This document shows positions 394 to 33,674 of a stretch of 64,000 bases of DNA, one piece after another. The translations under genes and the position numbers were made by a program. The notes below the pieces were generated by a model. It searched no databases. It was given only the letters and a program-made list of their open reading frames with translations, and was not told where the DNA came from. Source of the DNA: Escherichia phage IME178; sequence record NC_104190.1. One strand, 5' to 3'. The first letter of the stretch is position 1, and each line of letters opens with the position of its first letter.

Positions 394-886
394 TACTCCA
401 ATTATTTTTCTAGATATTGATGGGGTGCTCAATTCGAGCATCTCCCACCATCATGCACCTGATAATGAAAAGATTTTCTTTGGGAGTGACTGGGTTTTCA
501 AACCGCTTCTCAAGGCTTTTCAAGATTTTATTCGTCCTTCCTCGATAATGATTGTTGGGGTATCCTCATGGTTCTCTGTCAGGAATGAGATGGAGAACGT
601 TCAGATTATGACCGGATTAGGTCTTATCGATCGTTTTCTTGGTACAACGGATTTTACTGGGGGTGGGCTATCTAGAGGTAATTCTGTTCTCCGTTTCGTT
701 GAAAAGCATAAGCTCAAACATTGGTGTGTACTTGATGATGCGGGTGCTATGATGTATCAGTACCCAACGGTTATAGTCAACGGTAGGACTGGGATAAATC
801 TTCAGGATTTAAGAGCTGTTAGCTATATGCTAGAATTTAGCCCAGATCTTGAAATGTGTAAATCCTTACAACAATTTAAGGTGTAA
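374..886 (+). CDS. HAD-superfamily phosphatase-like protein
   Basis: 170-aa ORF with N-terminal IIFLDIDGVLN (HAD motif I, DxDG); overlaps the end of the Sir2-like gene. Confidence 0.55.
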   Translation: MCQEISNTPIIFLDIDGVLNSSISHHHAPDNEKIFFGSDWVFKPLLKAFQDFIRPSSIMIVGVSSWFSVRNEMENVQIMTGLGLIDRFLGTTDFTGGGLSRGNSVLRFVEKHKLKHWCVLDDAGAMMYQYPTVIVNGRTGINLQDLRAVSYMLEFSPDLEMCKSLQQFKV

Positions 887-898
887 ATATGTTCAATA

Positions 899-1315
899 AT
901 GTATTCTCTAAAGAAGCTAACCCAGTTTTGGTTAACTTTTGGCGTACTCTCCCAGCTAGTGTATAATGAGGCTATTAACTCTTTGAAAATATGGTGTGAG
1001 AATAACGAAATCTCCTTTGCTTTTAAAGATGATATTGATGAGGCCCCCTGTATTGGTTTAATTGTGCAGGTAGAGGATGGCCTTGAAGAGATTGTGGGCT
1101 GGAAAGAGTTAGACGAAATGGGCTTAGTTTTTGCGTTAAACTATAAGCTGTTTATGCCTGCTAAGCATCGCCTCGTTGTTAACTATAAAAATAGTGAATC
1201 TCCTGGTTTTCAGGTTAATGAACGTTATGGTTGGTCTTACTTACCGGAAGAAGTAAATGAGGGGATTCAGAAACTTCGACGTTTCGGGTATATGATCCCA
1301 GGTTTAACTGCTTAA
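899..1315 (+). CDS. hypothetical protein, tandem paralogue 1
   Basis: 138-aa ORF sharing D(E/D)(A/P)PCIG...W.EL..MGL..ALN...F and C-terminal R(F/V)G..(I/V)PGL with the next ORF. Confidence 0.55.
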   Translation: MYSLKKLTQFWLTFGVLSQLVYNEAINSLKIWCENNEISFAFKDDIDEAPCIGLIVQVEDGLEEIVGWKELDEMGLVFALNYKLFMPAKHRLVVNYKNSESPGFQVNERYGWSYLPEEVNEGIQKLRRFGYMIPGLTA

Positions 1316-1324
1316 GGAGGCAGA

Positions 1325-1714
1325 ATGGAACAAGTATACTGGCGTCAGATTGACCCTAGTTTGGTGAAGCGTGCGGAGAAGCTGCTACAACGTTGGTTGG
1401 GGGTAAGACAAGCCTCCTTCACTTTTCCTGAGCAGCAAACAGATGATCCCTGTATTGGTGTTTTCCTATCCGGCTACGCCGGGGAATGGGAGATGGACTG
1501 GAATGAATTGTCCGCTATGGGTTTAATTGTTGCCCTAAACTTCTCTATATTCCATCCACGTGGTTTGGCCATATGTCGTGTGCCTGATGACGGTTGTTCG
1601 CCCCATCTTTTACAGGTGGAAGATGATACTTGGGAGTATACTCCGGATATTCTTAAAGAAGCTAAAGAACAATTAAACCGTGTTGGGATCTATGTTCCGG
1701 GATTAAATGACTAA
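1325..1714 (+). CDS. hypothetical protein, tandem paralogue 2
   Basis: 129-aa ORF, paralogue of 899..1315; RBS GGAGG immediately upstream. Confidence 0.6.
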   Translation: MEQVYWRQIDPSLVKRAEKLLQRWLGVRQASFTFPEQQTDDPCIGVFLSGYAGEWEMDWNELSAMGLIVALNFSIFHPRGLAICRVPDDGCSPHLLQVEDDTWEYTPDILKEAKEQLNRVGIYVPGLND

Positions 1715-1808
1715 TGATTTTTATTAGCTGAACTATGATTACCGAGTCATTTTGGCTCGGTTTTATCCGTACTCAAGACCAATGATAGCACCATCCGGAA
1801 AATTTTAC

Positions 1809-1837
1809 TTGCAGGATGCCCAAAATCTTGATATAAT
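1809..1837 (+). promoter_or_regulatory. sigma70-type early promoter (TTGCAG, 17-bp spacer, TATAAT) with conserved downstream ATTGAATTGAGAGA
   Basis: Member of a repeated promoter family in this window; sits about 500 bp upstream of the likely start of the 2338..5127 gene. Confidence 0.4.
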
Positions 1838-2337
1838 ATTTATATTGAATTGAGAGACATTAGTAAAAATTGATTTTGCTAATTTTTCTTGTTTACAATC
1901 CGCGATACGGAACAGTTAGGCTGCCCCATTAAGGGTTGTTTTAACTGTTACATGTTAGTTTTTAAACAAATAGTTAATAGAATACTTAGCGATCTGCGCC
2001 CCATAGGAACCCTGGTAAGGCCTCGAAGCAACCTAGTATGAGGTGGTTGTGAAGTGAGATGGGAGGAGTGAAAAACTACCGAGACGTGATTCTGTAAGTT
2101 ATATTGCATCTAGTATGAGCTAGTATATGAAGCATTAGGTGAGCAAATCTGGCTTAGCGGCCATCCTCAAGGATTTGTGCGATATAGCAAAGCAGCAGCG
2201 CAGCGTGAAAGTGGAAGTTGCCACCCCACTTCAGTATTTGCGATTAATTTGTTGAGAAATTGACAGTAACAGTTGTTCTATTCTTTCTGAATAGTCCTAA
2301 AGAAAATTTATTTCATTTCCAACACAGGAGTATTGTT

Positions 2338-5127
2338 GTGTTCTCAATCCTACAAGGTCATGCAGGATTTCATCGCGATTTAGCCACAGGCAATTGGCGA
2401 GAAGTTAAAGCAGAAGATTATCTTTTTGCTAAAAGATTTTCCTCAAAGCATCCTGAAGGTAAACCAGCTTCAATGCCCTTCAAGTTTGATGTAATTGATG
2501 AAGTTGATCCTCAAACCCTAGTAGAAATGCTTCCTCTTATGAGACGTTTAACGTCTGACCCTCATATCGTTGCGGTACGAGGTAGATGTCTTGCACCTAA
2601 AAATAATGTGCGACGTAAGAAGGGCAACTTTAATGTATCTAACCCAAGTCATATAATTGCAATGGACGTGGATGGTATTGTGGATACAGGTGGTTGTAAC
2701 AAGTTTGATCTTGTTGGCATGGCTCGACATATTATTAGAATGTTAAATAGTATTAGTGAGGATATGTTTCCTCTTGATGCAGGGTTTATCGCTCATGCAT
2801 CGTCTTCGGCTGGGCTAAAACCAGGTATCCGAATGCACTTAATACTAGAATCTAATGTTAAAGTAACTCAGGGTCAAATCAAATTCTTATTTACATCTAT
2901 CAATGAAAGTAGTAGACAAAAGTATGGCTTTGATATTGCCGACTTAGCTTATTACTCTTCCGTACAGCTCCATTATTTTGCAGATCCGTTATTTACCGAT
3001 GGTATAGTAGATCCGTTTAAAGCGGAGGGTGCTTCACGTCTGGTATTTGTTAAAGGTTCTAAAGTAAATTTACCAAATAATCTGGTTGACTATGAAACAA
3101 CTAGAGGTGAGTTTAAGGAGGAGTTTTACTCTTTACTCGATCAAATTAAAGGTAAAAAAGCTGCCTCTGATAAAGTAGAGGAAACTATCAGCGAACTAGA
3201 AGAAGCTGAGGATGGGGTGTACTTGCGTATTATCCCCAAACTATACCATAGAGCATTAGAGGATGGTGTTGATTTTGCATGGCTAGAAAAAGAAATCCGT
3301 CCAGCCTTATCAGAATATATCGCAACTAAAGATAACAGTCGTAATATTCAAGATTACTTTAATAACGGTCGTAAACAGGCTCTGAAAGCATTTGTTAATA
3401 ATTCTAAACGCGATATACCTGATGTTTTAAAAGGTATTCCACTTAAAAAGCTAGAAACTAACTCCCTAGAAACTGATAACTTCTTGAAATTAAATACTGT
3501 GCCACCAGAAGGTTATATGACTTTTGTAAAAGCAAGTCTAGGTACAGGTAAAACCACGGCGGTTGTGCGTTGGTTAGATTCAGGAGTTATTAAAGGTAAT
3601 TTCTTAGCAATTACCAATACTAGAGCGCTGGTGTCTTCAAATGCTAAGAAATTCAGTGCAGGACAATATGATAAGTCTGTAGATATGCTTAATTTTAAGC
3701 GTGGTGCTATTGACCGTATGTCCACAACTATTCACTCTTTGCATAAGTTCAAGAGTTTTATTGGTCAAATTGATGCAATCTTTATCGATGAATGTGATGC
3801 TGTAATGAATGACCTGTTATTCGCCCCGGTTGTTAAACAACGTCGTGAGTGTATTCAGGTTCTTCGGGATATTCTTGCAACTGCAAAAATCATTATATTA
3901 TCAGATGGTGATATTAGTGCAGAAACAATTGAAGCATATGGTTCCTTGATTGAGTTTGATAAACCGGTTGCATTTTATAATCACCACCGTAAGATGTTGT
4001 CAAAAGCTCATGCTTATGAGTTCCCTGATGAATCCAGTATTTGGGTTGCACTTCAGACTTCTCTAGAGATGGGTGAGAAATCTATTCTGGTATCTGACTG
4101 TGGCCCTGATGAGCTGAATGAGAAGGGCATGGCATTACGTCGTAATACGGGTGCGTTAGTTAAGGAAATCCACTCAAACTCTACGTCTGATGTAGATATT
4201 CGACGTATTCTGGATTACACAACTAATGAGCTAATTGACCAACAAATTGATTGCTTATTATGTAGTCCATCCGTAACTAGTGGTGTTGACTTCAACTATT
4301 TTGATAACGTATTCGTTATTACTAGAACCAGCAACCAAGCGCCAAACATGCGTTTCCAAGCAATCAGGCGCGACCGTGGTGCTCAGAACATCTATTATTT
4401 TATTGATAAATCTACGAGTGGATTCTCCGCAGGTTCTGAACAATATAACATTGATGAAGGTTGGCTGGAGTTAGCACAGCAATTATACGCACGTCGCAGG
4501 GAGCTGGAATCTAGGAACTATACTAGTACTTTACGTTATTACTTGCTTGATCAGGGTGCAACTATTGATATTTTCAGTGAAAGCTGGGGAACTATCGAAG
4601 GTGCAGGCAAAGAGTATACAGAAGAGCGAATCAAAGCCATTTTGTATTCAACTCCTGATTATTGCGCTCCACGTCATGCGGATGCGTATGAAGCTAAACT
4701 ACTTCTTGTTCGCTACTATCATCTTGAGTCTATTAAAGATGTAACAGTTGAGCATGTTGAACAATATATCAAGGATAAACCGAATGATCGAGCTGCATTC
4801 TTCCATAAAATGCACGAGATGTTCTGGGAAGATATTAAGAAGTGTTCAAACGTCACTATCAAACCATTCATAGAAGCTCTGAAAGGTAAGAAGAAAGATT
4901 TCTTCCTTAAAACAGGTCAGAGTGCTAACCCAAAATATGCGAGAATGTATCTTGGTATGATGGGTATTGGTAAGGATATGAACACTGAAAATATTGTAGA
5001 CTGGTACAGAACCTATTGTAAAATCGAGTGTATGCCAATCCCATATAAGTTTATGACTGATGAGGAGAAACATATGCATGATGAAGCAATGGCAGAGCTA
5101 GGTGCTAGAAATGACAGTGAAGAATAA
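2338..5127 (+). CDS. putative primase-helicase: AEP-like primase domain fused to P-loop NTPase
   Basis: Long ORF (track 2260..5127); likely start GTG 2338 after RBS AGGAG. N-terminal IIAMDVDGI and GIRMHLIL resemble AEP primase motifs I/II; Walker A GTGKT and Walker B IFIDECD follow. Confidence 0.65.
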   Translation: MFSILQGHAGFHRDLATGNWREVKAEDYLFAKRFSSKHPEGKPASMPFKFDVIDEVDPQTLVEMLPLMRRLTSDPHIVAVRGRCLAPKNNVRRKKGNFNVSNPSHIIAMDVDGIVDTGGCNKFDLVGMARHIIRMLNSISEDMFPLDAGFIAHASSSAGLKPGIRMHLILESNVKVTQGQIKFLFTSINESSRQKYGFDIADLAYYSSVQLHYFADPLFTDGIVDPFKAEGASRLVFVKGSKVNLPNNLVDYETTRGEFKEEFYSLLDQIKGKKAASDKVEETISELEEAEDGVYLRIIPKLYHRALEDGVDFAWLEKEIRPALSEYIATKDNSRNIQDYFNNGRKQALKAFVNNSKRDIPDVLKGIPLKKLETNSLETDNFLKLNTVPPEGYMTFVKASLGTGKTTAVVRWLDSGVIKGNFLAITNTRALVSSNAKKFSAGQYDKSVDMLNFKRGAIDRMSTTIHSLHKFKSFIGQIDAIFIDECDAVMNDLLFAPVVKQRRECIQVLRDILATAKIIILSDGDISAETIEAYGSLIEFDKPVAFYNHHRKMLSKAHAYEFPDESSIWVALQTSLEMGEKSILVSDCGPDELNEKGMALRRNTGALVKEIHSNSTSDVDIRRILDYTTNELIDQQIDCLLCSPSVTSGVDFNYFDNVFVITRTSNQAPNMRFQAIRRDRGAQNIYYFIDKSTSGFSAGSEQYNIDEGWLELAQQLYARRRELESRNYTSTLRYYLLDQGATIDIFSESWGTIEGAGKEYTEERIKAILYSTPDYCAPRHADAYEAKLLLVRYYHLESIKDVTVEHVEQYIKDKPNDRAAFFHKMHEMFWEDIKKCSNVTIKPFIEALKGKKKDFFLKTGQSANPKYARMYLGMMGIGKDMNTENIVDWYRTYCKIECMPIPYKFMTDEEKHMHDEAMAELGARNDSEE

Positions 5128-5344
5128 AAAATGGGAAACAAGGAAGTTTCCAGTAAAAGAACGTAAAGTTCCTGTTTACGACACTTCGGAAAAGCTATGT
5201 AGGGTGGTACCGCATAGACTAGCTGGCATCCCTAACATATCCGAGTGGTTACTTAAACAACGGAAAACTAACGTGTCTCTTCGCGTAGGCTTTGAGTTAG
5301 ATAAAGTCTATGCTGAACTTGCTTCTTTGCTCAAGGAATCGTAA
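5111..5344 (+). CDS. hypothetical protein
   Basis: ORF track 5102..5344; ATG at 5111 overlaps the end of the upstream gene. Confidence 0.35.
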   Translation: MTVKNKKWETRKFPVKERKVPVYDTSEKLCRVVPHRLAGIPNISEWLLKQRKTNVSLRVGFELDKVYAELASLLKES

Positions 5345-5352
5345 AAATTTAT

Positions 5353-5381
5353 TTGCATAGTGCAAAAAATTTCTGTATAAT
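5353..5381 (+). promoter_or_regulatory. sigma70-type early promoter (TTGCAT-17-TATAAT) with conserved ATAAATTTGAGAGAGGAG leader
   Basis: Leader/RBS runs directly into the ATG at 5413. Confidence 0.5.
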
Positions 5382-5412
5382 AGATTCATAAATTTGAGAG
5401 AGGAGTTTAAAT

Positions 5413-6117
5413 ATGGCTGGTTCTCGTAGAAAGAAACATATCCATGAAATCCCGGATGAAGTCTTTAAAAAGGTTATAGAGCATCTGGAGAACGGTGGTA
5501 CTAAGAAAGCAGCATGTGAAATGCTCGGCGTATCGTCCAATCCAACTATGGAAAGGATGATTGAAGAATGGCAAGACCGCCAGATTCAGGTTGCCGAAAT
5601 GAAGAAAAAGAAACGTGGCACTCTCATTGAAGGCATTGAGTTAGCCAACGTTATTGAGCAGTATTTATCTGGTGATTCTTTTGAAGAAATTGCCGATCGT
5701 AATTATCGCTCTGTAGCAATGGTTAAATCTGTTCTGGAACGATATGGTGCTCTACTTCGTTTGAACGATATTGTAGATCCATTGAATCCTCCAATTATTC
5801 CTGATGATGCTGTAGCAGAAGAATTTGCAGTTGGTGAGCTTGTTTGGGTTCCTGGATACCAGTGTATCGGTGAAATCAAAAAAGCAATGGATAATCCTGT
5901 TGGTTGTTACCGTGTATGGCTTCTATCAGAAGGCAAACAACAGAACGTTCATTATATGAATTACGAGTTGGCCTCTGTTAAACATCTGGAAAAGTTAGGG
6001 GTTGACGTAAAATCTCTAGGATATAAATGGACTAGTGAAGAAATTATTACGTTGATTAACGAAGCTGTTAAGGCTGCCCTGAAACTTGATAAAGAAAAAG
6101 GAAAACGCCGTGAGTAA
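5413..6117 (+). CDS. helix-turn-helix DNA-binding protein (putative regulator)
   Basis: 234 aa; two HTH-like stretches (GGTKKAACEMLGVSSNPTMERMIEEW and SFEEIADRNYRSVAMVKSVLERYG). Confidence 0.55.
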   Translation: MAGSRRKKHIHEIPDEVFKKVIEHLENGGTKKAACEMLGVSSNPTMERMIEEWQDRQIQVAEMKKKKRGTLIEGIELANVIEQYLSGDSFEEIADRNYRSVAMVKSVLERYGALLRLNDIVDPLNPPIIPDDAVAEEFAVGELVWVPGYQCIGEIKKAMDNPVGCYRVWLLSEGKQQNVHYMNYELASVKHLEKLGVDVKSLGYKWTSEEIITLINEAVKAALKLDKEKGKRRE

Positions 6118-6373
6118 GCTAACAGATTTGCTTAAAGATGGAGATGTAAAATATCTCCAGCGGGATAGCTGGGGTAATTGGGATGCTCGTACTTATTACT
6201 CTACTATTATAAAAGTAGATGTTGATAATAATGATATTATCGAGTTTACCTGGTGGCCCAATGAAGATGGGTATACCAAGTTCGATATAAAAGACGCAAC
6301 ATGGAAGACCACCTCCCTAACCCTAGAAGAAGCTCTGGCGGATGATTGGGAGATCGTTGAGCTAGATGTATAG
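6110..6373 (+). CDS. hypothetical protein
   Basis: ORF track 6086..6373; probable GTG start at 6110 after AAGGA, overlapping the upstream stop. Confidence 0.45.
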   Translation: MSKLTDLLKDGDVKYLQRDSWGNWDARTYYSTIIKVDVDNNDIIEFTWWPNEDGYTKFDIKDATWKTTSLTLEEALADDWEIVELDV

Positions 6374-6393
6374 CAGTTATCGAAAAATTTCAG

Positions 6394-6422
6394 TTGCTTA
6401 ATCCTATAATTCTTGATATAAT
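6394..6422 (+). promoter_or_regulatory. sigma70-type early promoter (TTGCTT-17-TATAAT)
   Basis: Same family; upstream of the gene at 6480. Confidence 0.45.
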
Positions 6423-6479
6423 ATTCTCATAGTTTGAAAGAACTATTCTGTTTAATTCTTAATTAAGGAAATATAAAAT

Positions 6480-6890
6480 ATGACTACTCCAACTCAGTGG
6501 ACTGATGAACTGTTCGAAAAAATGTCTTCCGAATACGTTGCTCGTATGGAACAATTCCCAGAGGATGAACGTCCTGGTGTTAGCATGGAAATTGTTAGCG
6601 AAATTGCCCAGGAAAATGGTGTAACTCCGAACGGTTTTCGTATGAAGCTAACTAAAGCAGGTTTGTATATCAAGAAAGCTGCTGGCTCTGCTTCTAAATC
6701 TAGTGCATCTACTGGAGAAAAAGCTTCTGGTGGTTCTCGCACTTCTAAAGCTCAAGCTCATGCCGACCTTCGTTCAGCATTCTCTGATGCTGGCCTAGCA
6801 CCAGATTTTCTGGATGATGCAATTATCGACAAACTGACCGGTAAAGCGGCTGCTCATCTGGCAGAAGCAATCCGAGCTATCACTAAGTAA
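6480..6890 (+). CDS. A2-like paralogue (small, apparently highly expressed protein)
   Basis: 136 aa with E. coli-optimal codons; shares W(T/N)(D/E)E, EIA(Q/K), KLT(K/S)A and a C-terminal KL(T/E) helix with the 135-aa A2-like ORF at 56311..56718. Confidence 0.6.
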   Translation: MTTPTQWTDELFEKMSSEYVARMEQFPEDERPGVSMEIVSEIAQENGVTPNGFRMKLTKAGLYIKKAAGSASKSSASTGEKASGGSRTSKAQAHADLRSAFSDAGLAPDFLDDAIIDKLTGKAAAHLAEAIRAITK

Positions 6891-23605: not shown

Positions 23606-23641
23606 TAAACCCCAATGGACAAAATCCATTGGGGTTTTTAT
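23606..23641. terminator. bidirectional terminator hairpin between convergent early (+) and late (-) blocks
   Basis: AACCCCAATGG-ACAAAAT-CCATTGGGGTT flanked by T-runs on both strands. Confidence 0.65.
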
Positions 23642-25789
23642 TTACTTACTTGCCTTTAATTCCGCAATCTCAGCTTCCATCGCTTCGATCCTCTGCATTA
23701 ATACCTGCACAACGTGCATGGTATCCAGAAGCATCGGCGTGGTGTCCAGCTCCTTCTGCTCCACAACCTCTCCTGGATTATTGCCAACATATTTGCGCGT
23801 CTTAACATATAAAGGCTCAACAACCTCTGCTTGCTGTGCAATCACGCCATGCCGAACTCGATTTTGTTCGTCATTGTCATAAATGAACTCTACAAATTCC
23901 AGCCCTTTAATATTAGAGTATGATTTGTCAACTCCAACAGGGGCGATGCCGTGTTTTACACGTGAGTCAGAAGTACCATTTTTTGTATAACTAAAGTTCC
24001 CGTAATCAGTCGAACCATATATTTGACCATCAATATCAAAAAAGTAACGACAGAATTTTCCATTATCTCCACCGACCACCATGCAAGCTGTACCGAAGGC
24101 ATTATTACCTGGTATGTACATATGGAGCCCTATCTTGGTGGGATATCCGTTGGGGCGATATCCACCAATAGAATAACCACGAACTAGTGTGTCTGAACCG
24201 CTAGCAATGGCTACCCGATCCATGCCGTTGGTAGTCAGGTTGTCTATTCCAGCATCCGTAATGCCATTCCATGTGCCCATAGGCGTATTCATACGGAAGG
24301 TATTAATCTTACCCGATTGGCGGAAGTCTGCCGTACCATCTTCGTAAAACTTATAAGAGTGCTTAGCGGAGCCCTCAGCCTCAATAATCGCAGCCCCCGA
24401 GGAGCCCCAGATAGTATCAGAGTATAGACGAGCAAACCGCTTACCTGCTGGGTTGGAATATTCAGATACTACTTCACCACCACGAACGGAGGTATTCTGC
24501 GGAGGTGCGCTACTATCTGCATTCTTAACACTCCATGATGTATTTGCTGCAACGAAACCACCCGACGCACGGATTACCCACACACCGACAAAGTTTCGTG
24601 TAAGAATTTCATCATTTGATGTTCCGTAAATTGGACTTGAACGTGAGGCGTCAAAATTTAGTGTATTATAGCGCCCAGATAATGCAATATTTCCTGTACT
24701 TGGAATCGCATCCCCATCACCATTAGGAAAAATCGCATTATCAACAAAGAATGCACCACTAGCAGTAGAGCCAAATACCTGGGCGTAGCTAGTACTTGAG
24801 TAGCTAGGAACAGCAGCAGTAATATTAGGTGCAGCAGATTCAAATAGCTGGCCATTTGCACCACTATTTCCACCATCTCCACGACCATAAAGAGCGCGTA
24901 TTGATCCCTCCTGCACCCCATTCTTATCTGGAACACGAAAAGTTGTTGTCCCATTTCCTGATGAGTACTTACCGCGCTGAAATTTATCAGCCAGCCATTT
25001 AGAATCATCTATAGCACCCACCATTTGAGCGTAAGCCCAAAGCTCCGGCCAGTCAGCCCTGTTAAGAAGCTGCCCATCAGAAACTACCTCATAAGGTTGA
25101 ATATACGCACGACTATCGCGAAGGTGAAAATCACCTACACCATAGTTCATGACACCATTCATTGTGGGTCCTACTGTGCCAGTATTAATTTTGTTCTCCA
25201 CCCAACGCTTAGTTACAGCATCATAATCATTAACGGGGTCTCCCGCAAGGGGAGTAGATCCAATAGGTCGCACATTTAGCCACGCAGCTGCGCGATCTGC
25301 TAAATCTGATAAATTATTTTCAGTCAATAGGCTTTCGTCTTTTGTTGGCACATTATAACTTTGTCTAAAAGCTTCTTTTGATACTACTCCAGTACCTCCT
25401 TGTTCTATAGAAAGTGCAGTGGTTAAACCTGTTAAAGATTTAATAGTTGAGTTGGCACCATCCATGTCTATACTAGCAAATCTTGACCATGCAGTCCATG
25501 AATTGTAAAAAGATCTACTATATATCTCATTACGATTATAAGGTAAGTAAATTTGAGTACAAGAAGTCGCTAAATTGCTTGCATTATTTTTTAAAACTAG
25601 TAATGTACCTGCAGCCGCAACAGGATAGTTAAGAGAAGTAGGAGAGTTAGCATTTTCAGATTGCCAATACTTTCCATACACACTCCCATCAAGTGTATTT
25701 AAATTTGTTCCTGTAGTAATTAAACCATATACAGGTAAAGCGGCTACATCAGTAGCCTTTAAGTTAATTTTATCAATTCTAAGAGCCAT
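23642..25789 (-). CDS. L-shaped tail fiber protein (LtfB-like) with C-terminal intramolecular chaperone domain
   Basis: 715 aa; C-terminal ~130 aa resembles the self-cleaving chaperone of T5 pb1-type fibers. Confidence 0.65.
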   Translation of the reverse strand: MALRIDKINLKATDVAALPVYGLITTGTNLNTLDGSVYGKYWQSENANSPTSLNYPVAAAGTLLVLKNNASNLATSCTQIYLPYNRNEIYSRSFYNSWTAWSRFASIDMDGANSTIKSLTGLTTALSIEQGGTGVVSKEAFRQSYNVPTKDESLLTENNLSDLADRAAAWLNVRPIGSTPLAGDPVNDYDAVTKRWVENKINTGTVGPTMNGVMNYGVGDFHLRDSRAYIQPYEVVSDGQLLNRADWPELWAYAQMVGAIDDSKWLADKFQRGKYSSGNGTTTFRVPDKNGVQEGSIRALYGRGDGGNSGANGQLFESAAPNITAAVPSYSSTSYAQVFGSTASGAFFVDNAIFPNGDGDAIPSTGNIALSGRYNTLNFDASRSSPIYGTSNDEILTRNFVGVWVIRASGGFVAANTSWSVKNADSSAPPQNTSVRGGEVVSEYSNPAGKRFARLYSDTIWGSSGAAIIEAEGSAKHSYKFYEDGTADFRQSGKINTFRMNTPMGTWNGITDAGIDNLTTNGMDRVAIASGSDTLVRGYSIGGYRPNGYPTKIGLHMYIPGNNAFGTACMVVGGDNGKFCRYFFDIDGQIYGSTDYGNFSYTKNGTSDSRVKHGIAPVGVDKSYSNIKGLEFVEFIYDNDEQNRVRHGVIAQQAEVVEPLYVKTRKYVGNNPGEVVEQKELDTTPMLLDTMHVVQVLMQRIEAMEAEIAELKASK

Positions 25790-25798
25790 TTTAATTCC

Positions 25799-26104
25799 TC
25801 ATGCCCACATGCGAACAGGTGTTTCTGGGTTTACTATAAATTTATCTAGTATAGAGAGATCAAAATCATCAATATTCATAATACGCAGATTAACGTGATA
25901 TCCTTCTTGCACTACATACTCAATATCCTCTATATTTTGGTACTCTGTTAAGGGTTTTACAGGCTGACTAATAGTACCTATAAAATCAATACTGACATTT
26001 TCACAGTATAAACTACCTGTTTCTTCATCTAAACTAAAGCCAAATTTTATCAAATTAATTTTCATTTCATCAGCATTAGTAAATTTTAGATATAAATCTT
26101 TCAT
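25799..26104 (-). CDS. hypothetical protein between the two fiber genes
   Basis: 101-aa ORF. Confidence 0.45.
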   Translation of the reverse strand: MKDLYLKFTNADEMKINLIKFGFSLDEETGSLYCENVSIDFIGTISQPVKPLTEYQNIEDIEYVVQEGYHVNLRIMNIDDFDLSILDKFIVNPETPVRMWA

Positions 26105-26150
26105 TATAGAATCCTTAATTTTATGGGAGCATTATATAATGCTCCTGTAC

Positions 26151-28340
26151 TTACCGTAAGCCATTAATCTGATCATTATTTAAGGCCCTATACCATACTC
26201 GGAAATTCTTAATATGATATACAAATTTAGAAGGGGTAGGAGATGGTGATGCACCTAACCTAGACGGAATACCTGTCAAACTCACGGGAGTACTAGTAGA
26301 TTTAGCAGTTTTACCATTAAAATAGTTGCTTATTTCATTTCCAACTATTTTTTGAGCATAGGTCATAGGAGGTAGACTTTCTATATCTGGAATAGCTAAG
26401 GTTGGCCCTGTACTAGATCTATATGTTCTTATAGTGGCATTATCATCGCTATCACAGCGGCAGATAATGTCATACCTAGAACCTCTTACTTGCATAACTT
26501 CTACATAACTAGTATAAGGTCGTACTTTACAATTAAATTCAAAAGATACTGTGCGCTCAAAGTAGTCTGCTAGGGTTCTATAGCCGGCATTATCTGGTAT
26601 ACACCACCATTCATCTGCTGTTCTAGTAGTAGTGGTATTAGTACTATTACGGATGTAAGAAGTTGGAGCTATGCCTTCCTCAACCTGTATACCCCAAATG
26701 TAGAAACCAGAAACACCATCCCCCTCATAGACAGCAGTAGTAGTAGTTTTAGCCATCTGGAGTCTAAATATAGTGCTTTGACTTGCAGTGGCTGCAAAAG
26801 AAATCCAAATTCTATATATACCTCCAGTTAATCTCTCATACCCCCCTCTAATATTACTAGCAGAACCAGTTGTTACAACAGTTTCATTTTTAATATCAAA
26901 AAACATACCAGCAGTTGTACCAGAAGCTACACGTAGATATACTAAACGATTTGCAGTATCATCTTTAACGTAGGCAGAGTAACAATAAAAAGTATCAGCA
27001 GTCAAAGATATTCCTTTATCGTTGCAGTAGTGCTCGCTGTTACTGGTACTCTCGGTAAATTTAGTCATCAACATTTCGCCGGTAGGACAAGCCGAAGCAT
27101 TAGGGGTTGTAATAACTAGATTACCACCAGTAATTGCTTCTGAATTAGTATATAAATTAGTACACTGAGACTCCATTAATAAACCTTGCTTTTCAAATCT
27201 AGGTTCATTAATATCTGCAAAACACATTTTACCACTTTTATCTATATAACTGGCGGTAGTTGAGCGAGTAAAATTTGCAGATTTTGTTGGCAATTCCAGA
27301 GTTACATCATTAATTGTTGCTAAATCGTAAGGGGCCATACCAGATAATAATCTCATATCATCAGTTAAAGGTACCCAAACATCCGGATAGGGGACAGGTT
27401 CATATATAATAATACTAGCAGCAGAAGCAGCGGCGGCAGCTTCAGAAGCTTTAGCATTAATTTCAGAAGCTTTAGCATTAGTTTCAGATGTTTTAGCATT
27501 AGTTTCTGATGTTTTAGCATTAGTTTCTGATGTTTTAGCAGCATTTTTACTTGCTAAAGCATCTGCGGCACTTCCAGCAGCTGCATTTTTACTTGCTAAT
27601 GCGTTAGTTTCGCTAGTAGCAGCATTCGTCTCAGATGTTTTAGCATTAGTTTCAGAAGTTTTTGCTGCTGTTTGTGATTTAGCAGCAGCATTTTTACTTG
27701 CTAATGCATTAGTTTCGCTAGCAGCAGCATTCGTAGCCGAATTAGCTGCAGCTAATTCGGAAGCTTTAGCATTAGTTTCAGAAGTCTTAGCGTTAGTTTC
27801 AGAAATTTTTGCTGCTGTTTGTGAAGCTGCTGCTGCAGTTTTACTTGCTAATGCATTAGCTTCACTAGTAGCAGCATTCGTCTCGGAGGCTTTAGCTTTG
27901 GTTTCACTAGTCTTTGCATTAGTCTCAGAGGTTTTTGCATTAGTCTCAGAGGTTTTAGCCTTGGTTTCACTAGTCTTTGCATTAGTCTCAGAGGTTTTAG
28001 CTGCAGCTGCTGATTCTGCAGATTTAGTAGCTGATGCAGCAGACTTAGTAGCGGACGTAGCAGATTGAGTAGCAGAAGCTTCAGAAGCTTCAGCAGAAAT
28101 AGCAGCTTCCTGTTCAGAGTTCTTAGCATTAAGCTCTGAAGTCTTAGCAGCTATTTCGGAGTCTTTTGCAGCTGCAGCAGACTTAGCTGCAGCCTCAATA
28201 GATGATACTAACTCACTTGCAGTAATAGAGCTAATAGAGTTACCAAGAGTTACTGTATATCTAGGAAATTTACTAGCAGTAGCTTTAGTATCATCAATAT
28301 TTAATATCTGTTGTACAATAATCTTAGTAATTACTGCCAT
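26151..28340 (-). CDS. L-shaped tail fiber protein (LtfA-like): Ala/Ser/Thr-rich repeat shaft plus C-terminal lectin-like domain
   Basis: 729 aa; long (AKTSETN)n-type repeat tract then a globular C-terminal domain. Confidence 0.65.
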   Translation of the reverse strand: MAVITKIIVQQILNIDDTKATASKFPRYTVTLGNSISSITASELVSSIEAAAKSAAAAKDSEIAAKTSELNAKNSEQEAAISAEASEASATQSATSATKSAASATKSAESAAAAKTSETNAKTSETKAKTSETNAKTSETNAKTSETKAKASETNAATSEANALASKTAAAASQTAAKISETNAKTSETNAKASELAAANSATNAAASETNALASKNAAAKSQTAAKTSETNAKTSETNAATSETNALASKNAAAGSAADALASKNAAKTSETNAKTSETNAKTSETNAKASEINAKASEAAAAASAASIIIYEPVPYPDVWVPLTDDMRLLSGMAPYDLATINDVTLELPTKSANFTRSTTASYIDKSGKMCFADINEPRFEKQGLLMESQCTNLYTNSEAITGGNLVITTPNASACPTGEMLMTKFTESTSNSEHYCNDKGISLTADTFYCYSAYVKDDTANRLVYLRVASGTTAGMFFDIKNETVVTTGSASNIRGGYERLTGGIYRIWISFAATASQSTIFRLQMAKTTTTAVYEGDGVSGFYIWGIQVEEGIAPTSYIRNSTNTTTTRTADEWWCIPDNAGYRTLADYFERTVSFEFNCKVRPYTSYVEVMQVRGSRYDIICRCDSDDNATIRTYRSSTGPTLAIPDIESLPPMTYAQKIVGNEISNYFNGKTAKSTSTPVSLTGIPSRLGASPSPTPSKFVYHIKNFRVWYRALNNDQINGLR
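27420..28200 (-). repeat. in-frame tandem repeat tract of about 21 bp (7-aa) units inside the LtfA-like gene
   Basis: Repeated gtttcagatgttttagcatta-type units on the + strand encoding SETNAKT-like heptads. Confidence 0.6.
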
Positions 28341-28762
28341 TATTTAGTTACCCCATCACTGATAAATACTTTACCCTCCATTATACGAAAGGAGCTAATT
28401 GCGGATCCTATAACATCTCTAGTCATAATTATATCATAGTATCCTGCGAATCGCTGACGGGGGTTATATTTATCTCTATCTTTAGATGCTTTAGCTCCTA
28501 TATTTTCTACAGATTCTACCGGTAAACTTATAGCTACAGCCCCTTGAGCAGCATCAATAATACTAGTAGTAAAGGATGCTAATATCTCCGCATTCTCATC
28601 TAGGCTATTTTTTATTGTACCCCTTAGAGAATATCCGGTTAAATTAACAGGAGTATTTGTAGGCGGATAAGTAGTATCATCAACATCTAAGAATTGCATC
28701 ATTAGACCATAGGGTACTTTCTCATCTATCACTAAGTCTATAACTCTATTTTCAGTACTCAT
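28340..28762 (-). CDS. collar/fiber-attachment protein (p132-like)
   Basis: 140 aa, same length and position as T5 p132 between the pb4-like and fiber genes. Confidence 0.5.
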
Positions 28763-28766
28763 TATT

Positions 28767-30840
28767 TTACCTTATGTGAATATATCCATTTACTAGATCT
28801 ATCTTCATTTTGTACGCAGCTTCTGGATTTCCTGATAATGCTGCATTTCTATCATAAATAGTGTTAACCCCTATCTGGGATAAGAAAGCATTACCTGCCA
28901 CTATTTTATCCGCAGTAATAGTGCCATTAACTACCATATTACCATGCAGTACCATGGCCGGGTTGATCCAACCATAGCCATTCCATTGTCTAGTAAATGC
29001 TGTCTGCGGAGCACCACTATTAAATTGAGTTAGCACATCATATTTAACAGGAGGGGAGCCAAAGTTACTTTGGAAGAATGCATTAGCTTGGTTATCATCC
29101 CACCCGCCTAGCCCAGCTATTCCAACGGAATACATGCCAGGACCCCTTTGACCATCTGCACCAATCGTACCTTCAGTACCGCTCCATTGAACTACATCAG
29201 ACCAGCTAGTACCTTCTAATAGCTTATTAGTAACAGGATCTAGAGTACCAGTAGTAGCGTAGATATTCTGAGTCATATCAGTACGATTAGGAGGTGTTTT
29301 AGACCAACCAGGGGGTGGATAATCCTGTTCTAAGGGCTTAGCAGGTAGATTCTTACCTAGTTTGTAAACAAATACTGTTTGCTTACCCTGCATCCCAGTA
29401 CCAATATCTACGTCTCCATTAGGAGTACCAATAACAACTCCACTAGAAATACGAAGAGTATCGCCATCATAGCGTATCCACTGAGTAGCATTACCTATAT
29501 CTAACTTTGGCTTAGCAGAAGTGTTATCCATTCCCATCCAGATACCAGATTTTGTATCCCCCCAAGTTTTACCCTGAGTATATATTGCAGGGTTATCTTG
29601 GCCAGTTAGATTGGTCATTACAAAGTTAGCAGCATTGATAGTTTTAGTTATAACACTACCATCAACGTTAACTATCTTTTTAACCGGATCAAAAGATATT
29701 GGTGCTTTTCCTTCAGCATCTAGAAGACCTATATTAATAGCACCGGTAGCGGCATCAATTAAAAAATGTTTGTTTCCAAGTAGATCCATCTTTGATCTTA
29801 CCCTTAATATACGCATAGTTTACTTCAATACCCGTTTCATTAACAAAACTATTGTCAAGAGGAGTATCCTCATTTAGTGTAAAAGTCTGTACTGCAGAAT
29901 CTGTAACATCTTGAGCATCTGGTCCCCATGCTATAGAAGAGACTTTAAATTTATGCTCAATTTTCCACGGAAACGATATAATAGTTGCCGCTTGTGCAGC
30001 ACCTACGTTAATTTTTTGAGCTTTAGTCCATCCAGTTTTTTTGAATTCTACTGAATCTATATAAGAAACAACAAATTCGCGAACGTTAGCGCCAGCTCCT
30101 CTATACCATTCCCATTGTACACGGAGATCATATCTTTCTTTACCATCAGCAATCCTTGCAGCTTTGAAAGTAATGTTGTTAGGAGCAGTAGGAGGTACAA
30201 AGTTATACTCTACAGTAAGAACTTTGGAAAATTCAAAGTATCCAGAAGAGTCTACAGTTACACCATCTGGCATGGTAACTTGCCCAGATATGCGTACTTT
30301 GTAATCCCCAACAGGAACACCCCCAAATCTAATAGTGGGAGATAGTGGACCTATATAATACTTTACCCACGGGCTATTTGAAGGTTGAGTACTTTTTAAC
30401 TCAATAGTACAATAACTAGCTTCTCCTGTAGTCTCTATAACTACTATAGGGGCACCTACACCCACATCTACTGGATCAGCCTCTGATCTAGCGGCAGTAA
30501 TAGTAGGTTTTCTCTTAGTACTAAAGGTAGTTTTATTGGATAAGTTTATGCCAATTTTAGCCTCTAATAGCTCAGAGTCTATAATAGAGTCATAGAAAGC
30601 CCCTTGAACCTCATAAGAAGTTGAAGGGGTTAGATTATTAATCATTACAAAGAAAGTATCTATACCGGTATAGTCACGTCTATCAATACTTTCTCCTAAC
30701 TTTAACCAAAAGGATCTACCAATAACGTCATAATCAGTATATATAGAGTGCTGGACATACGCCATTGTATATCCAGTCATTATACTATTTAAGACCATTT
30801 TGGCTGGTGCATTATTCGAAATCATTAAATGGATGCCCAC
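28767..30840 (-). CDS. baseplate/tail-tip protein pb4-like; frame break near 29755-29816
   Basis: Two overlapping track ORFs (30840..29755, 361 aa; 29816..28767, 349 aa) in different frames; total span about 690 codons, close to T5 pb4. Confidence 0.5.
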
Positions 30841-33674
30841 TCCACAGACTGTTCCCCCTCATCTCCTTCTGCTCTAATACGAAAATATAGTTTTCTATTG
30901 ATCCCTAGAGCATCACTGTTATGGAGAGCAAAATCTGCCTTATTATACATTAATAAATAGTCATAAGTATACTGATTTTCAATACGTACACTTCTTAGCA
31001 TTCTATTCTGGGAGTCATAGATTTCCAGAGTATAGAATATACTTTCTATTATATCTTCTTCTGGTATCCTATCCCAAGCTAGTTTTACATCTGGGCCTAC
31101 AAATTCAGTTACATCCCTGGAAGCCGTATTAGTTACCCTAAAATTAGATACTACACTTAGGTTTTTAGCAGAGTTAAGTTCTATAGATAATGTTACTGGA
31201 GAACTTCTTCTACCATTTATATCCACAGCCCTTATTTCAAATATCGCTAAGCCTGCAGGCTCTCCAATTATCTCTTGGATCATGCGTTCATTGGGATTTG
31301 TTTCTAGTTGCTGCACAATATAAGGTTCAGCATGACCGGAATGCACGATAGAGTAATAAACTACGTTATTAGTTAAGCTTGGAAGCCAAGATAACTCACC
31401 ATTTTTTCCTATAGAACCAACTAAACCACCAGGTGTAGGGGTATATTTAAAATCCCTAGGAGGAAGAACGTTGTTACTAATATCTGGTATATCATTACCA
31501 CTATTATCTACTTGATCAGAGTTGATAAATACATCTTCCCCATACTCCTGTAGGGTAACATTTATCTTTCCTTCCCTAGAGTTTTCGACTTCATCTACTA
31601 AAAAGTACTTCTTATCCCATCCGTAACGGTCGTAGGTAAATGCAATAGCATCGTTAGGCTCAATACCAATGAATTGATATGGTAAAGAAAATGAGAGGGT
31701 TCTAGAATACCTAGATTTCTTAAGTTCTCTGTCTGCAAAACTTCTAGCAGTATAGTAGTTAGTTATATTTGCAAAAGATAACTGTAATTTTTGTCTAAAT
31801 TTTTATCTTGCTCTTTATATTTAGAGTTGTAAAAGGTAATAGAGTTAGTTTTCCAGCTAAGAGCTGGGTCTACGATGGATGCTTGAACTGAGTTGAATTT
31901 ATTTCTACCAGTAGTATCTGATAGCTCTAAATCACCATAAGTATCCAGAAAATTAATCTCTAATGGAGTATTAGAATATTTTTCTACAGTAATCCTATAT
32001 TGACCAGATAAGTTGTTAATAGCCCCACCGTAGGACTCTAGCAAACCTTGCACGTTTTTTAAATACTGATTCAGATGTGTCTAGAATAGTATTCATTTGT
32101 ACTATTTGTCTATTTTCTGCTAATGGATCAGTCCACCCAACATATCTCCAGTATGGCTGCCAGGATACTTGGTAAGATTCATCTATAATATCTAAGATAG
32201 CAGCTTCTTGTACCAATTGTTGGAGAGGGAACTGATCAATAGCAATGTTTGCACCATACCTATCTGAAGTTAAGTAGTCAAGTGTTTGCCAAATACCATT
32301 TAAACTAGTACTATTAGCAGTTACTCTACCATCAGAATGATAGATTTTTATCTTCTTACCCTGAATCTCAGCACTAACTTCTGGAATCTCAGTTCTATTT
32401 TCATTAATAGTAAAGCGTACTACCGCGTATGCAGTATCTAATAGTTTATATCTAGCATCCCAGTACTCAGGTCCATTGCCGTTCATATTTTGGAGATAGA
32501 ACCCACGTTCCTTCGCTATATTTACTAATACTTCAGAAGCCGTTTGATCAGCTTTTCCATGATAAGTCCAAATCCTTATATCACCATTACCATCGTTATA
32601 CTTATATTCCTGGCCATGCACAGAAGGACTACTAGAAGATATTCCTGATGCTATTCTTTGCATGGTGTCTCCGGCTACTTTTTTAACACCGAAACAGGTT
32701 CTAGCAGAACTATCATTAGAGTCCATACAAATCATGGGGTTATCCCCAAAGGAAAAGTCAAGAAAACCGTCTATCTCTCCTTCAGCAAAAGCATATACTA
32801 CATAAACTATATTAGGATTGTGTAATTCCGTATCCGCAAAAATAGGTATTCCCGGTATTTTCTGTACACCATAAACTACTGGTATATACTTAGCAGCAAG
32901 GTTAAAATCTATATCTACTTCTTTAGTAACAGTCTCATAATACTTTTTAAGACTATAACTTCTAGATAGTCCAAATAGCTTTTTCTTAGACTTTAGCTTG
33001 TATCTTTCTTCCTGTACCTGATACTTTGCTAGAATAGAGATACTTTTATTGGCGTGAAAGAAACCGTAGTCTTCTTGGTACTCAAGTCTTTTAGCCCCGT
33101 TAGATGGAACTAATTGTCCTGCTACAACCTCAAGCCCTCTATGAGAAGCATCATCAGTAAATCTACCGTTAACCCTATCAAAATCATAGAATTGGTTAGA
33201 ACAATTCCAAGTAATTGTAGAGGTTCCAACCCCAGAAATACTAATGTTGTCCTTAATACCTCCACCAGTAATTCTCCCTCTAAAGTATAATAAAGGGCCA
33301 TTTGTGTCTGGGTCTACAGGTAAAATAGAACCATCCTCTGTAATAATTGCTTGGTGGATTGATACTAGTCTATCTAAAAAGGACACCCCATTCTGCACTA
33401 GTTTCAGTACTTCATCCTGCGCTGTACCTGTAATAGTAAAAGATAGACTGCCAATAGATAAATCTCTGTTTTGTTTATGTGTGCTAATAGACTTAACTTT
33501 ACCGGCCTGGTACAAAATACCATTATATAGTACATCTCTAAAATAGTCAGTTAAGTAAATAAAAGCAGTACTAGTACCAGTAGAGCCGGGTAATTCTAGA
33601 GAAATTAGACTAGCAGTTTTTATTCTGCTATTATTTTTTAAGTAGTTTCTAGCACTATCTAATATTTTTTTCAT
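30825..33674 (-). CDS. baseplate hub protein pb3-like; two compensating frame breaks
   Basis: Span is exactly 950 codons (T5 pb3 is 949 aa). Frame holds 33674..32016, shifts for 32053..31763, then returns to the original frame from about 31802 to 30825 (hand translation is open and coding-like). Confidence 0.6.

Follow-up and report, generated by a model that had tools for sequence, protein, structure and literature searches.

The DNA between positions 23,642 and 28,762 of a 64,000-nucleotide stretch from Escherichia phage IME178 (NC_104190.1; the whole stretch is referred to as the window) is the operon for the lateral, L-shaped tail fibers of a Tequintavirus. It has the three-gene layout of phage AKFV33, in which the gene for a first fiber protein (A) is followed by genes for a small protein of 101 amino acids (aa) and for a second fiber protein (B). 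These proteins probably make a branched fiber with two receptor-binding parts, which would function like the lateral fiber of phage DT57C but with a different, portable joint between its fiber proteins. The first-pass annotation of this DNA had described two fiber genes in place of a single pb1-type gene, with a collar gene upstream, and these open reading frames (ORFs) are indeed present on the minus strand, the collar ORF being that of LtfC (Table 1). The phage was assigned to Tequintavirus by the neighboring genes and by megablast matches to 217 phage records. The sequence of A agrees at 100% identity with the 'tail fiber protein' of IME178. The locus lies between pb4/pb3 and the convergent D13-D15/dut block, and its ORFs are ordered as in phages HMD-P3, fp01, DT57C and AKFV33.

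The same three genes occur in the same order, between the collar and dUTPase genes, in AKFV33, IrisVonRoten (Bas32), mar004NP2, EC100 and L6jm. The AKFV33 proteins ORF137, ORF136 and ORF135 (784, 88 and 557 aa) are homologous to A, the small protein and B, respectively. ORF137 is 40% identical to A over its full length, up to the C-terminus, and consists of a pb1/LtfA N-terminus, a coiled coil and a module of GTA-spike-like and LamG domains, although the lectin modules of the two proteins are only ~26% identical. ORF136 is 34% identical to the small protein. Residues 150 - 473 of B align with ORF135 at 74% identity, but B has an additional ~150 residues at its N-terminus and a different distal tip. 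At the sequence level, the window has all the features of an AKFV33-type cassette, namely a first fiber with a lectin module, a free-standing ORF of 85 - 105 aa immediately downstream that belongs to the phrog_18574/1361 family, and a second fiber that starts with the motif of the matching type. AKFV33 is among the phages with two ltf genes listed by Golomidova in 2016 (PMC4728585). Its fiber genes have been named ltpA and ltpB, and mass spectrometry has detected ORF137 in virions (PMC3326045). The BASEL paper speaks of 'a single large polypeptide or 2 (or more) separate proteins' (PMC8594841). Since the layout has been noted from 2012 onward, this kind of locus is known and the window contains another member of it. 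The portability of the cassette and its obligate small partner may be under-described: no paper on them was found in the literature searched, an absence that is no proof.

The C-terminal module of A, which follows the heptad repeats of the shaft, has 417 residues. Within it, residues 388 - 575 match the NCBIfam family GTA_spike_fiber (NF048003; E 3.6e-31, 109 bits against a cut-off of 36) and residues 354 - 576 match Rcc01080, the head-spike fiber of RcGTA (PDB 6tb9; E 4.8e-20). The C-terminal end resembles Laminin_G_3 (PF13385) with an E-value of 6.5e-5, which is under the Pfam cut-off; the same family is precomputed on two homologs. The AlphaFold2 model of the module, calculated with 35 homologs, is all-β and has a predicted local distance difference test score (pLDDT) of 85.9 and a predicted template-modeling score of 0.82. 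The RcGTA-like domain reaches a pLDDT of ~90, and only the first ~50 residues, the junction, are poorly defined. The low confidence of the junction in a monomer model is as expected of a segment that folds only in the assembly. In a Foldseek search, chains from the baseplate/fiber complexes of Pa193 and E217 rank first, followed by pairs of laminin LG4-5 domains, lectin domains of trans-sialidases and tandem CBM22 modules. From the Pa193 and E217 chains nothing is concluded beyond 'tandem β-sandwich'. Judged by the model, the module is a tandem sandwich of the ConA/LamG type, so that the lectin-like C-terminal part claimed for A in the first-pass annotation is fairly named at the level of the fold. 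The fold and the hypervariability of the RcGTA-like domain suggest that it may bind polysaccharide; its homolog in the RcGTA head-spike fiber binds capsule (PMC10218006). Both domains are distal, flexible and polysaccharide-facing parts of an appendage. However, Rcc01080 sits on the capsid vertices by means of a 10-residue N-terminal anchor, whereas the domain in A is fused to a long coiled coil on the tail, with a second, LamG-like domain and a partner ORF after it.

Residues 111 - 715 of B align with LtfB of DT57C, starting from its residue 116, at 42% identity. B is likewise similar to DT57C LtfA, in the C-terminal half of the latter (E 5e-135). For the first 110 residues of B, neither DT57C LtfB nor AKFV33 ORF135 has an equivalent, and a Pfam search with the N-terminal 150 residues gave no match. 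Residues 26 - 120 match phrog_6578 (E 1.7e-28), and residues 27 - 104 show a weak similarity to the knobs of R-pyocin fibers (E 0.015 - 0.18; 0.015 for R2, 6ct8, and 0.095 for 6cl6). Because of this weakness the region is described as a possible knob-like domain. Past residue ~440, B departs from both AKFV33 ORF135 and DT57C LtfB, and fp01 shares the locus only as far as position ~25022. The distal part (positions 23642 - 25100, ~560 residues) is 74 - 80% identical in DNA to the unrelated phages BRET (MK165087), of 59.5 kb, and vB_EcoM_WFC (MK373777), a Wifcevirus and myovirus of 72 kb. The sharing is a case of horizontal exchange of a receptor-binding part across unrelated phage groups. Such mosaicism is the pattern expected of a receptor-binding tip, a role that residues 441 - 606 probably play. 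B ends, as had been proposed, in a C-terminal chaperone domain: the Peptidase_S74 domain (PF13884) covers residues 607 - 659 with an E-value of 3.4e-8 and 34.1 bits against a cut-off of 22. Ser607 in GT^SDSRVK aligns with the predicted cleavage site of DT57C LtfB, GT^SGRDFKK (PMC4728585). B is thus predicted to cleave itself before Ser607, shedding its last 109 residues and leaving a mature protein of 606 aa.

The cassette is not confined to T5-like phages. The C-terminal module of A has 256 relatives at E ≤ 1e-5, mostly proteins of ~555 aa from prophages of Leclercia and other enterobacteria. The three genes follow a gpJ-like tail-tip gene in a Leclercia prophage, whereas in P1-like phages they follow P1 gp16/R. 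The cassette also occurs in the lambdoid phage 21, in the Seuratvirus KurtStettler and in the T5-like BASEL phage IrisVonRoten. In phage 21, the Seuratviruses (KurtStettler, JenP1/2) and the P1-like phages, the lectin-module fiber is immediately followed by the small ORF and often by a second fiber with the matching motif, and A carries an N-terminal adaptor peculiar to each type of tail. The first-pass annotation had the 101-aa ORF as separating the two fiber genes. It is there, but it is no mere spacer: among IMG/VR loci it behaves as an obligate partner of the lectin-module fiber, being found directly downstream in 78 of the 79 loci located through the A module (68 by a strict pattern and 10 on inspection), while the A module is directly upstream in 70 of the 72 loci located through the small ORF.

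Two types of cassette can be distinguished. In type I, which includes the window, Leclercia and the P1-like phages, the small protein has ~100 aa and B starts with MALRxDxI; B of the window starts with MALRID(KI). Type II comprises AKFV33, IrisVonRoten (Bas32), KurtStettler and phage 21. Its small protein has 88 - 92 aa and its B starts with M.T.T.IP.DITKLK. A second fiber is present in 52 of the 66 evaluable type-I loci, and in each of the 52 it has an M-x-x-R-x-D start. A further 80 loci were collected through type-II small proteins, and all seven second fibers in them carry the type-II motif. The N-terminus of B therefore agrees with the type of the cassette in all 59 cases, even though the B proteins are unrelated in their bodies. 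Thirteen other evaluable type-I loci have no B and continue with an unrelated 356-aa ORF (MDDNVTLRVNG...), which we take to be a tail gene like P2 gpD from a tail cluster of the myovirus type. In 44 type-II loci of E. coli prophages a small membrane protein stands in place of B, as it does in many of the lambdoid, Seuratvirus and P1-like loci. The A module thus serves as a fiber tip without any B in phage 21, in the 13 myovirus-type loci and in the 44 E. coli prophage loci.

The membrane protein has ~97 aa and two predicted transmembrane segments (...FIAREHTQAEYRW...). It immediately follows the small ORF, where a second fiber would be, in many lambdoid prophages of E. coli and in a P1-like phage; the window has none. 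Its sites are positions 5292 - 5585 in phage 21 (L010), 6368 - 6655 in the P1-like contig L009, and 44 IMG/VR loci among L171 - L250. Contig L009 also contains, at positions 598 - 6260, a longer series of genes for A (711 aa), a small protein (93 aa), B (982 aa) and a second small protein (95 aa). This B has the type-I docking motif at its start and the same lectin module at its end, and is then followed by a homologous small ORF (A-s-B-s2), which suggests that such fibers can be stacked.

Conservation along the cassette was expressed as the mean pairwise identity among 59 distinct type-I cassettes. It is 80% for the A junction (residues 313 - 352), 83% for the small protein and 70% for residues 1 - 10 of B. 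The corresponding values are 42.5% for the GTA-spike-like domain of A, 40.7% for its LamG-like domain and 33% for residues 21 - 60 of B. As the loci are not phylogenetically independent, these figures should be read as a pattern and not as a test statistic. The cassette has a conserved core of junction, small protein and B N-terminus, flanked by two fast-evolving parts.

The most probable mechanism is as follows. The lectin module of A would be a first, glycan-binding tip, because it is hypervariable, ends fibers that have no B, and has a GTA homolog that binds capsule. B, which appears to have no homology to any T5 tail protein, would hang on A by its conserved N-terminal ~10 - 20 residues; residues 1 - 20 are the probable docking peptide. 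This peptide would dock at the A junction, for which residues 313 - 352 are the candidate site, at the small protein, or at both. B would thereby add a second tip that can be exchanged independently of the first. A broader version of this proposal is that the ~40-residue A junction, the ~100-aa protein and the first ~10 - 20 residues of the next fiber form a portable fiber-on-fiber joint of two mutually incompatible types (I and II), with the small protein as an adaptor of an undescribed kind. That version is tentative and on balance doubtful. If true, it would allow such unrelated tails as those of T5-like, lambdoid, Seuratvirus and P1-like phages to plug in, swap or chain receptor-binding fibers (A-s-B-s2).

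The proposed mechanism is weakest in the role that it gives to the small protein. Its AlphaFold2 model has an α/β fold with a pLDDT of 84.5, but the structure search produced no informative neighbor. Comparison with Pfam, NCBIfam and PDB sequences gave nothing meaningful, the match to NF002615 being far under the cut-off of that family. The family comprises 426 clusters at 50% identity and is always free-standing; not one fusion to a fiber protein was found among 1.84 billion representatives. A 784-aa match (P0279) that looked like such a fusion was rejected as a translated tandem repeat and a chance match. The small protein accompanies every lectin-module fiber, whether or not there is a B, which argues for a role in the assembly of that fiber. 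It does not diverge together with the lectin domains and it tracks the type of the B motif, as would fit a component of the joint. It would thus be a dedicated partner of the lectin-module fiber, most likely an assembly factor that acts at the junction, a role that is preferred by a narrow margin to that of an adaptor retained in the particle.

A structural adaptor kept in the virion, where it would connect the junction in A to B's N-terminal peptide, is a serious alternative, if the less probable one. The small protein is as conserved as the two segments that it would connect and does not follow the divergence of the lectin domains, its type agrees with the B motif in all 59 cases, and it is never fused to another protein. 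However, it is kept in more than 57 loci without a second fiber, where an adaptor needed only for B should be dispensable, and a small ORF also follows the terminal module of the P1-like B. The position directly after a fiber gene that lacks an S74 domain is, moreover, the usual place of a fiber assembly protein, and this is the position of the small ORF.

It is rather unlikely that the fiber is serial, with the lectin module of A being no more than its elbow and dock, B being the sole receptor-binding part, and A and B together replacing pb1 from end to end. The operon order, in which B with its conserved N-terminal peptide comes after A and the small ORF, would suit such a fiber, as would the L shape of T5 fibers. 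A structural role of the module is also conceivable from the top Foldseek matches, which are baseplate/tail-fiber chains of Pa193 and E217. The lectin domains are, however, the most variable part of the cassette (41 - 42% compared to 80% for the junction), and such variability marks a receptor-binding tip and not a dock. The same module terminates fibers that have no B at all, and the RcGTA homolog binds capsule (PMC10218006).

In the branched, two-receptor fiber that is preferred here, A is the protein anchored in the collar. LtfC of the window is 84% identical to LtfC of DT57C, which forms a dodecameric ring of known structure (PMC10713586). The N-terminus of DT57C LtfA is woven into this ring and a three-helix coiled coil begins at T40 (PMC10713586). 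Residues 1 - 219 of A match DT57C LtfA in PDB entry 8hqz_d (E 7.8e-38). In a BLASTP comparison the two proteins are 52% identical over 212 aa and nearly identical within the first 60. Because both LtfC and the N-terminal ~40 residues of A are close homologs of the proteins in the solved complex, it is well supported by sequence that LtfC holds the side-fiber N-termini and that A is the protein so held.

The shaft of A, predicted in the first-pass annotation as an Ala/Ser/Thr-rich heptad repeat, consists of 39 consecutive heptads without a stutter. Ala, Ser and Thr make up 62.6% of residues 40 - 312, and the heptad pattern is far above chance. Ser occupies position 1 in 38 of the 39 heptads and Ala occupies position 5 in 33, resulting in an Ala(a)/Ser(d) core. 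A would trimerize, and the 273-residue tract would form a coiled-coil rod of ~40 nm. In the DNA, Tandem Repeats Finder detects arrays of 21 bp with super-periods of 42, 63, 105 and 147 bp at positions 27441 - 28073. The 21-bp units are degenerate: the 39 units include 36 distinct 21-mers, and no exact non-overlapping repeat is longer than 38 bp.

The repeat tract had also been proposed as a site of length variation, and this is borne out by natural relatives, which differ by whole heptads. The shaft was compared in 11 homologs whose C-terminal module is at least 88% identical to that of the window; 10 of these are intact, and the broken coding sequence of fp01 (P0008) was left out. In nine of the 10 intact homologs the YEPVPYPDVW motif is located at residue 313, 264, 250, 215 or 103, so that the offsets of 0, -49, -63, -98 and -210 residues are exact multiples of seven. 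The tenth (P0012) has an offset of -99 and a T5-type N-terminus that is one residue shorter. The length of the rod would shift by whole heptads through recombination within the repeat, which would be a natural means of tuning the reach of the fiber. A is annotated as two coding sequences in the two closest GenBank relatives, HMD-P3 (L001, 5660 - 7755) and fp01 (L002, 5130 - 7033), because the tract is interrupted by a foreign insert, translating to RSEERRVGKECFLRCRSRWSPYH, in the former and by a run of N in the latter. These interruptions within the repeat are assembly artifacts, and the split genes were rejected as biological variants.

Several points weigh against the reading given here. The best Foldseek template-modeling scores of the A module are low (0.40/0.35) and represent likeness at the level of domains only, and a lectin fold alone does not prove sugar binding. 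It is co-variation and conservation, and these alone, that point to the docking of B on A. The IMG/VR loci are largely related enterobacterial prophages, so that their counts are not counts of independent events. Some of the differences in shaft length are possibly due to repeat collapse, as several relatives are short-read metagenome assemblies and collapse preserves the 21-bp register; the assembly damage in the two GenBank relatives fp01 and HMD-P3 is exactly inside the repeat tract.

The locus had been matched to the branched-fiber arrangement described for some T5-like phages. This stands insofar as there are two fiber genes and AKFV33 is listed among phages of that kind (PMC4728585), but none of the three features on which the DT57C model rests is present. 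These are the presence of an S74 domain in LtfA as well as in LtfB, a region of LtfA (residues 223 - 471) that resembles phiEco32 gp14 and was proposed to hold LtfB, and a similarity of the first 45 residues of LtfB to phiEco32 gp15 (PMC4728585). A gave no Pfam match at E ≤ 0.01 and hence has no Peptidase_S74 domain: DT57C LtfA (1076 aa) ends in an S74 domain of its own, whereas A ends in the LamG-like domain and S74 is found in B only. In BLASTP only residues 1 - 212 of A and low-complexity Ala/Ser/Thr sequence align with LtfA, leaving no counterpart of its gp14-like region. The N-termini of B and LtfB are unrelated and B has no gp15-like start. DT57C, in turn, lacks both a small ORF between its fiber genes and a lectin-type module. 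It is therefore very improbable that modules like phiEco32 gp14 and gp15 attach B to the middle of A, despite the homology of the B and LtfB bodies over ~600 aa and that of the A and LtfA N-termini. What the window shares with DT57C and DT571/2 is LtfC, the collar N-terminus and coiled coil of A, the body and S74 domain of B, and two fiber genes with two receptor-binding parts, each of which would be exchangeable on its own. The ~1400-aa pb1 (Ltf) of T5 is similar in its locus, its attachment to the collar, its heptad-rich proximal shaft and its distal C-terminal S74 domain (PMC4728585). However, pb1 is one polypeptide, whereas the window has two fibers and a small protein, with A ending in a lectin module.

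The idea that a sequencing error has split a single pb1-like gene into the two fiber ORFs can be dismissed, even though frameshifts do occur in the adjacent pb4 and pb3 genes of the same record, because separate start codons and ribosome-binding sites are present for A, the small ORF and B, full-length homologs of all three are conserved as separate genes in many phages and prophages, and A terminates in a complete folded module with a conserved C-terminus (...NGLR).

The two neighboring genes are themselves damaged. The pb4 gene for the straight fiber (positions 28767 - 30840), a single 685-aa gene in relatives, is split into a 361-aa ORF with three Fn3 domains and a 349-aa ORF with the spike domain. 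The break is caused by one extra T in a T-run at ~29762 - 29767, which has six T's here and five in HMD-P3 and fp01. The gene for the baseplate hub protein, pb3 (positions 30825 - 33674), is distributed over three ORFs of 552, 96 and 173 aa, which join near 31790 and 32060. A tblastn search with DT57C pb3 aligns in frames -3, -1 and -3 at 94 - 97% identity, indicating two frameshifts in an essential tail gene. The frameshifts in pb4 and pb3 are probably sequencing errors in the record, that in pb4 being a homopolymer error.

Table 1. Features in the lateral tail fiber locus and their positions in the window
Feature	Positions	Strand	Basis
Collar protein LtfC / p132, 140 aa	28340-28762	minus	Pfam PF23926 LtfC, E 1e-14
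Fiber protein A, 729 aa, LtfA-like	26151-28340	minus	ORF; homology to AKFV33 ORF137
A residues 1-39, collar-insertion N-terminus common to DT57C LtfA and T5 pb1	28224-28340	minus	
A residues 40-312, 39 heptads, consensus SETNAKT (21-bp repeat tract)	27405-28223	minus	
A residues 313-352, conserved junction (YEPVPYPDVWVPLTDDMRLL...) between coiled coil and lectin module	27285-27404	minus	
A residues 353-576, RcGTA head-spike-fiber-like domain, β-sandwich, sugar-binding type	26613-27284	minus	
A residues 577-729, second β-sandwich, LamG / ConA-like	26154-26612	minus	
Small partner protein, 101 aa, phrog_18574 / phrog_1361 family	25799-26104	minus	
Fiber protein B, 715 aa, LtfB-like	23642-25789	minus	phrog_6921 tail fiber, E 2.8e-204
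B residues 1-20 (MALRIDKINLKATDVAALPV), conserved N-terminal peptide	25730-25789	minus	
B residues 22-108, possible knob-like domain	25466-25726	minus	Weak R-pyocin fiber similarity; phrog_6578
B residues 441-606, variable distal part	23972-24469	minus	Divergence from AKFV33 ORF135 and DT57C LtfB
B residues 607-715, Peptidase_S74 intramolecular chaperone	23645-23971	minus	PF13884
Bidirectional intrinsic terminator	23607-23637	both strands	13-14-pair stem, T-runs on either strand

The side fibers of a T5-like phage determine the O-antigen types that it can get past, and with that the host range of phages used in therapy and biocontrol. If the mechanism is correct, the lectin module of A (residues 353 - 729) and the distal part of B (residues 441 - 606) would be the pieces to vary in engineering, and the A junction, the small protein and the N-terminus of B would have to be kept together. 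The small partner protein represents a concrete gap in the understanding of how such fibers are assembled.

The locus is flanked by genes for an SbcCD-like nuclease, a resolvase, a flap endonuclease and the dUTPase on one side and by pb4 and pb3 on the other. The terminator separates the end of B from the end of the convergent dUTPase gene and closes the operon. The stop codon of the collar gene overlaps the start codon of A as TAATG. The small ORF is preceded by a Shine-Dalgarno-like AGGA, and the gap between it and B is only 9 nt and contains GAGGA. A scan for promoters was uninformative, with 27 sites compared to 27.1 in shuffled sequence. A perfect hairpin with an 8-bp stem, GGAGCATT-ATAT-AATGCTCC, is found at positions 26125 - 26144, after the stop codon of A and before the small ORF's ribosome-binding site. 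No T-run accompanies it, and it could be an element that stabilizes or attenuates the transcript, or could have arisen by chance.

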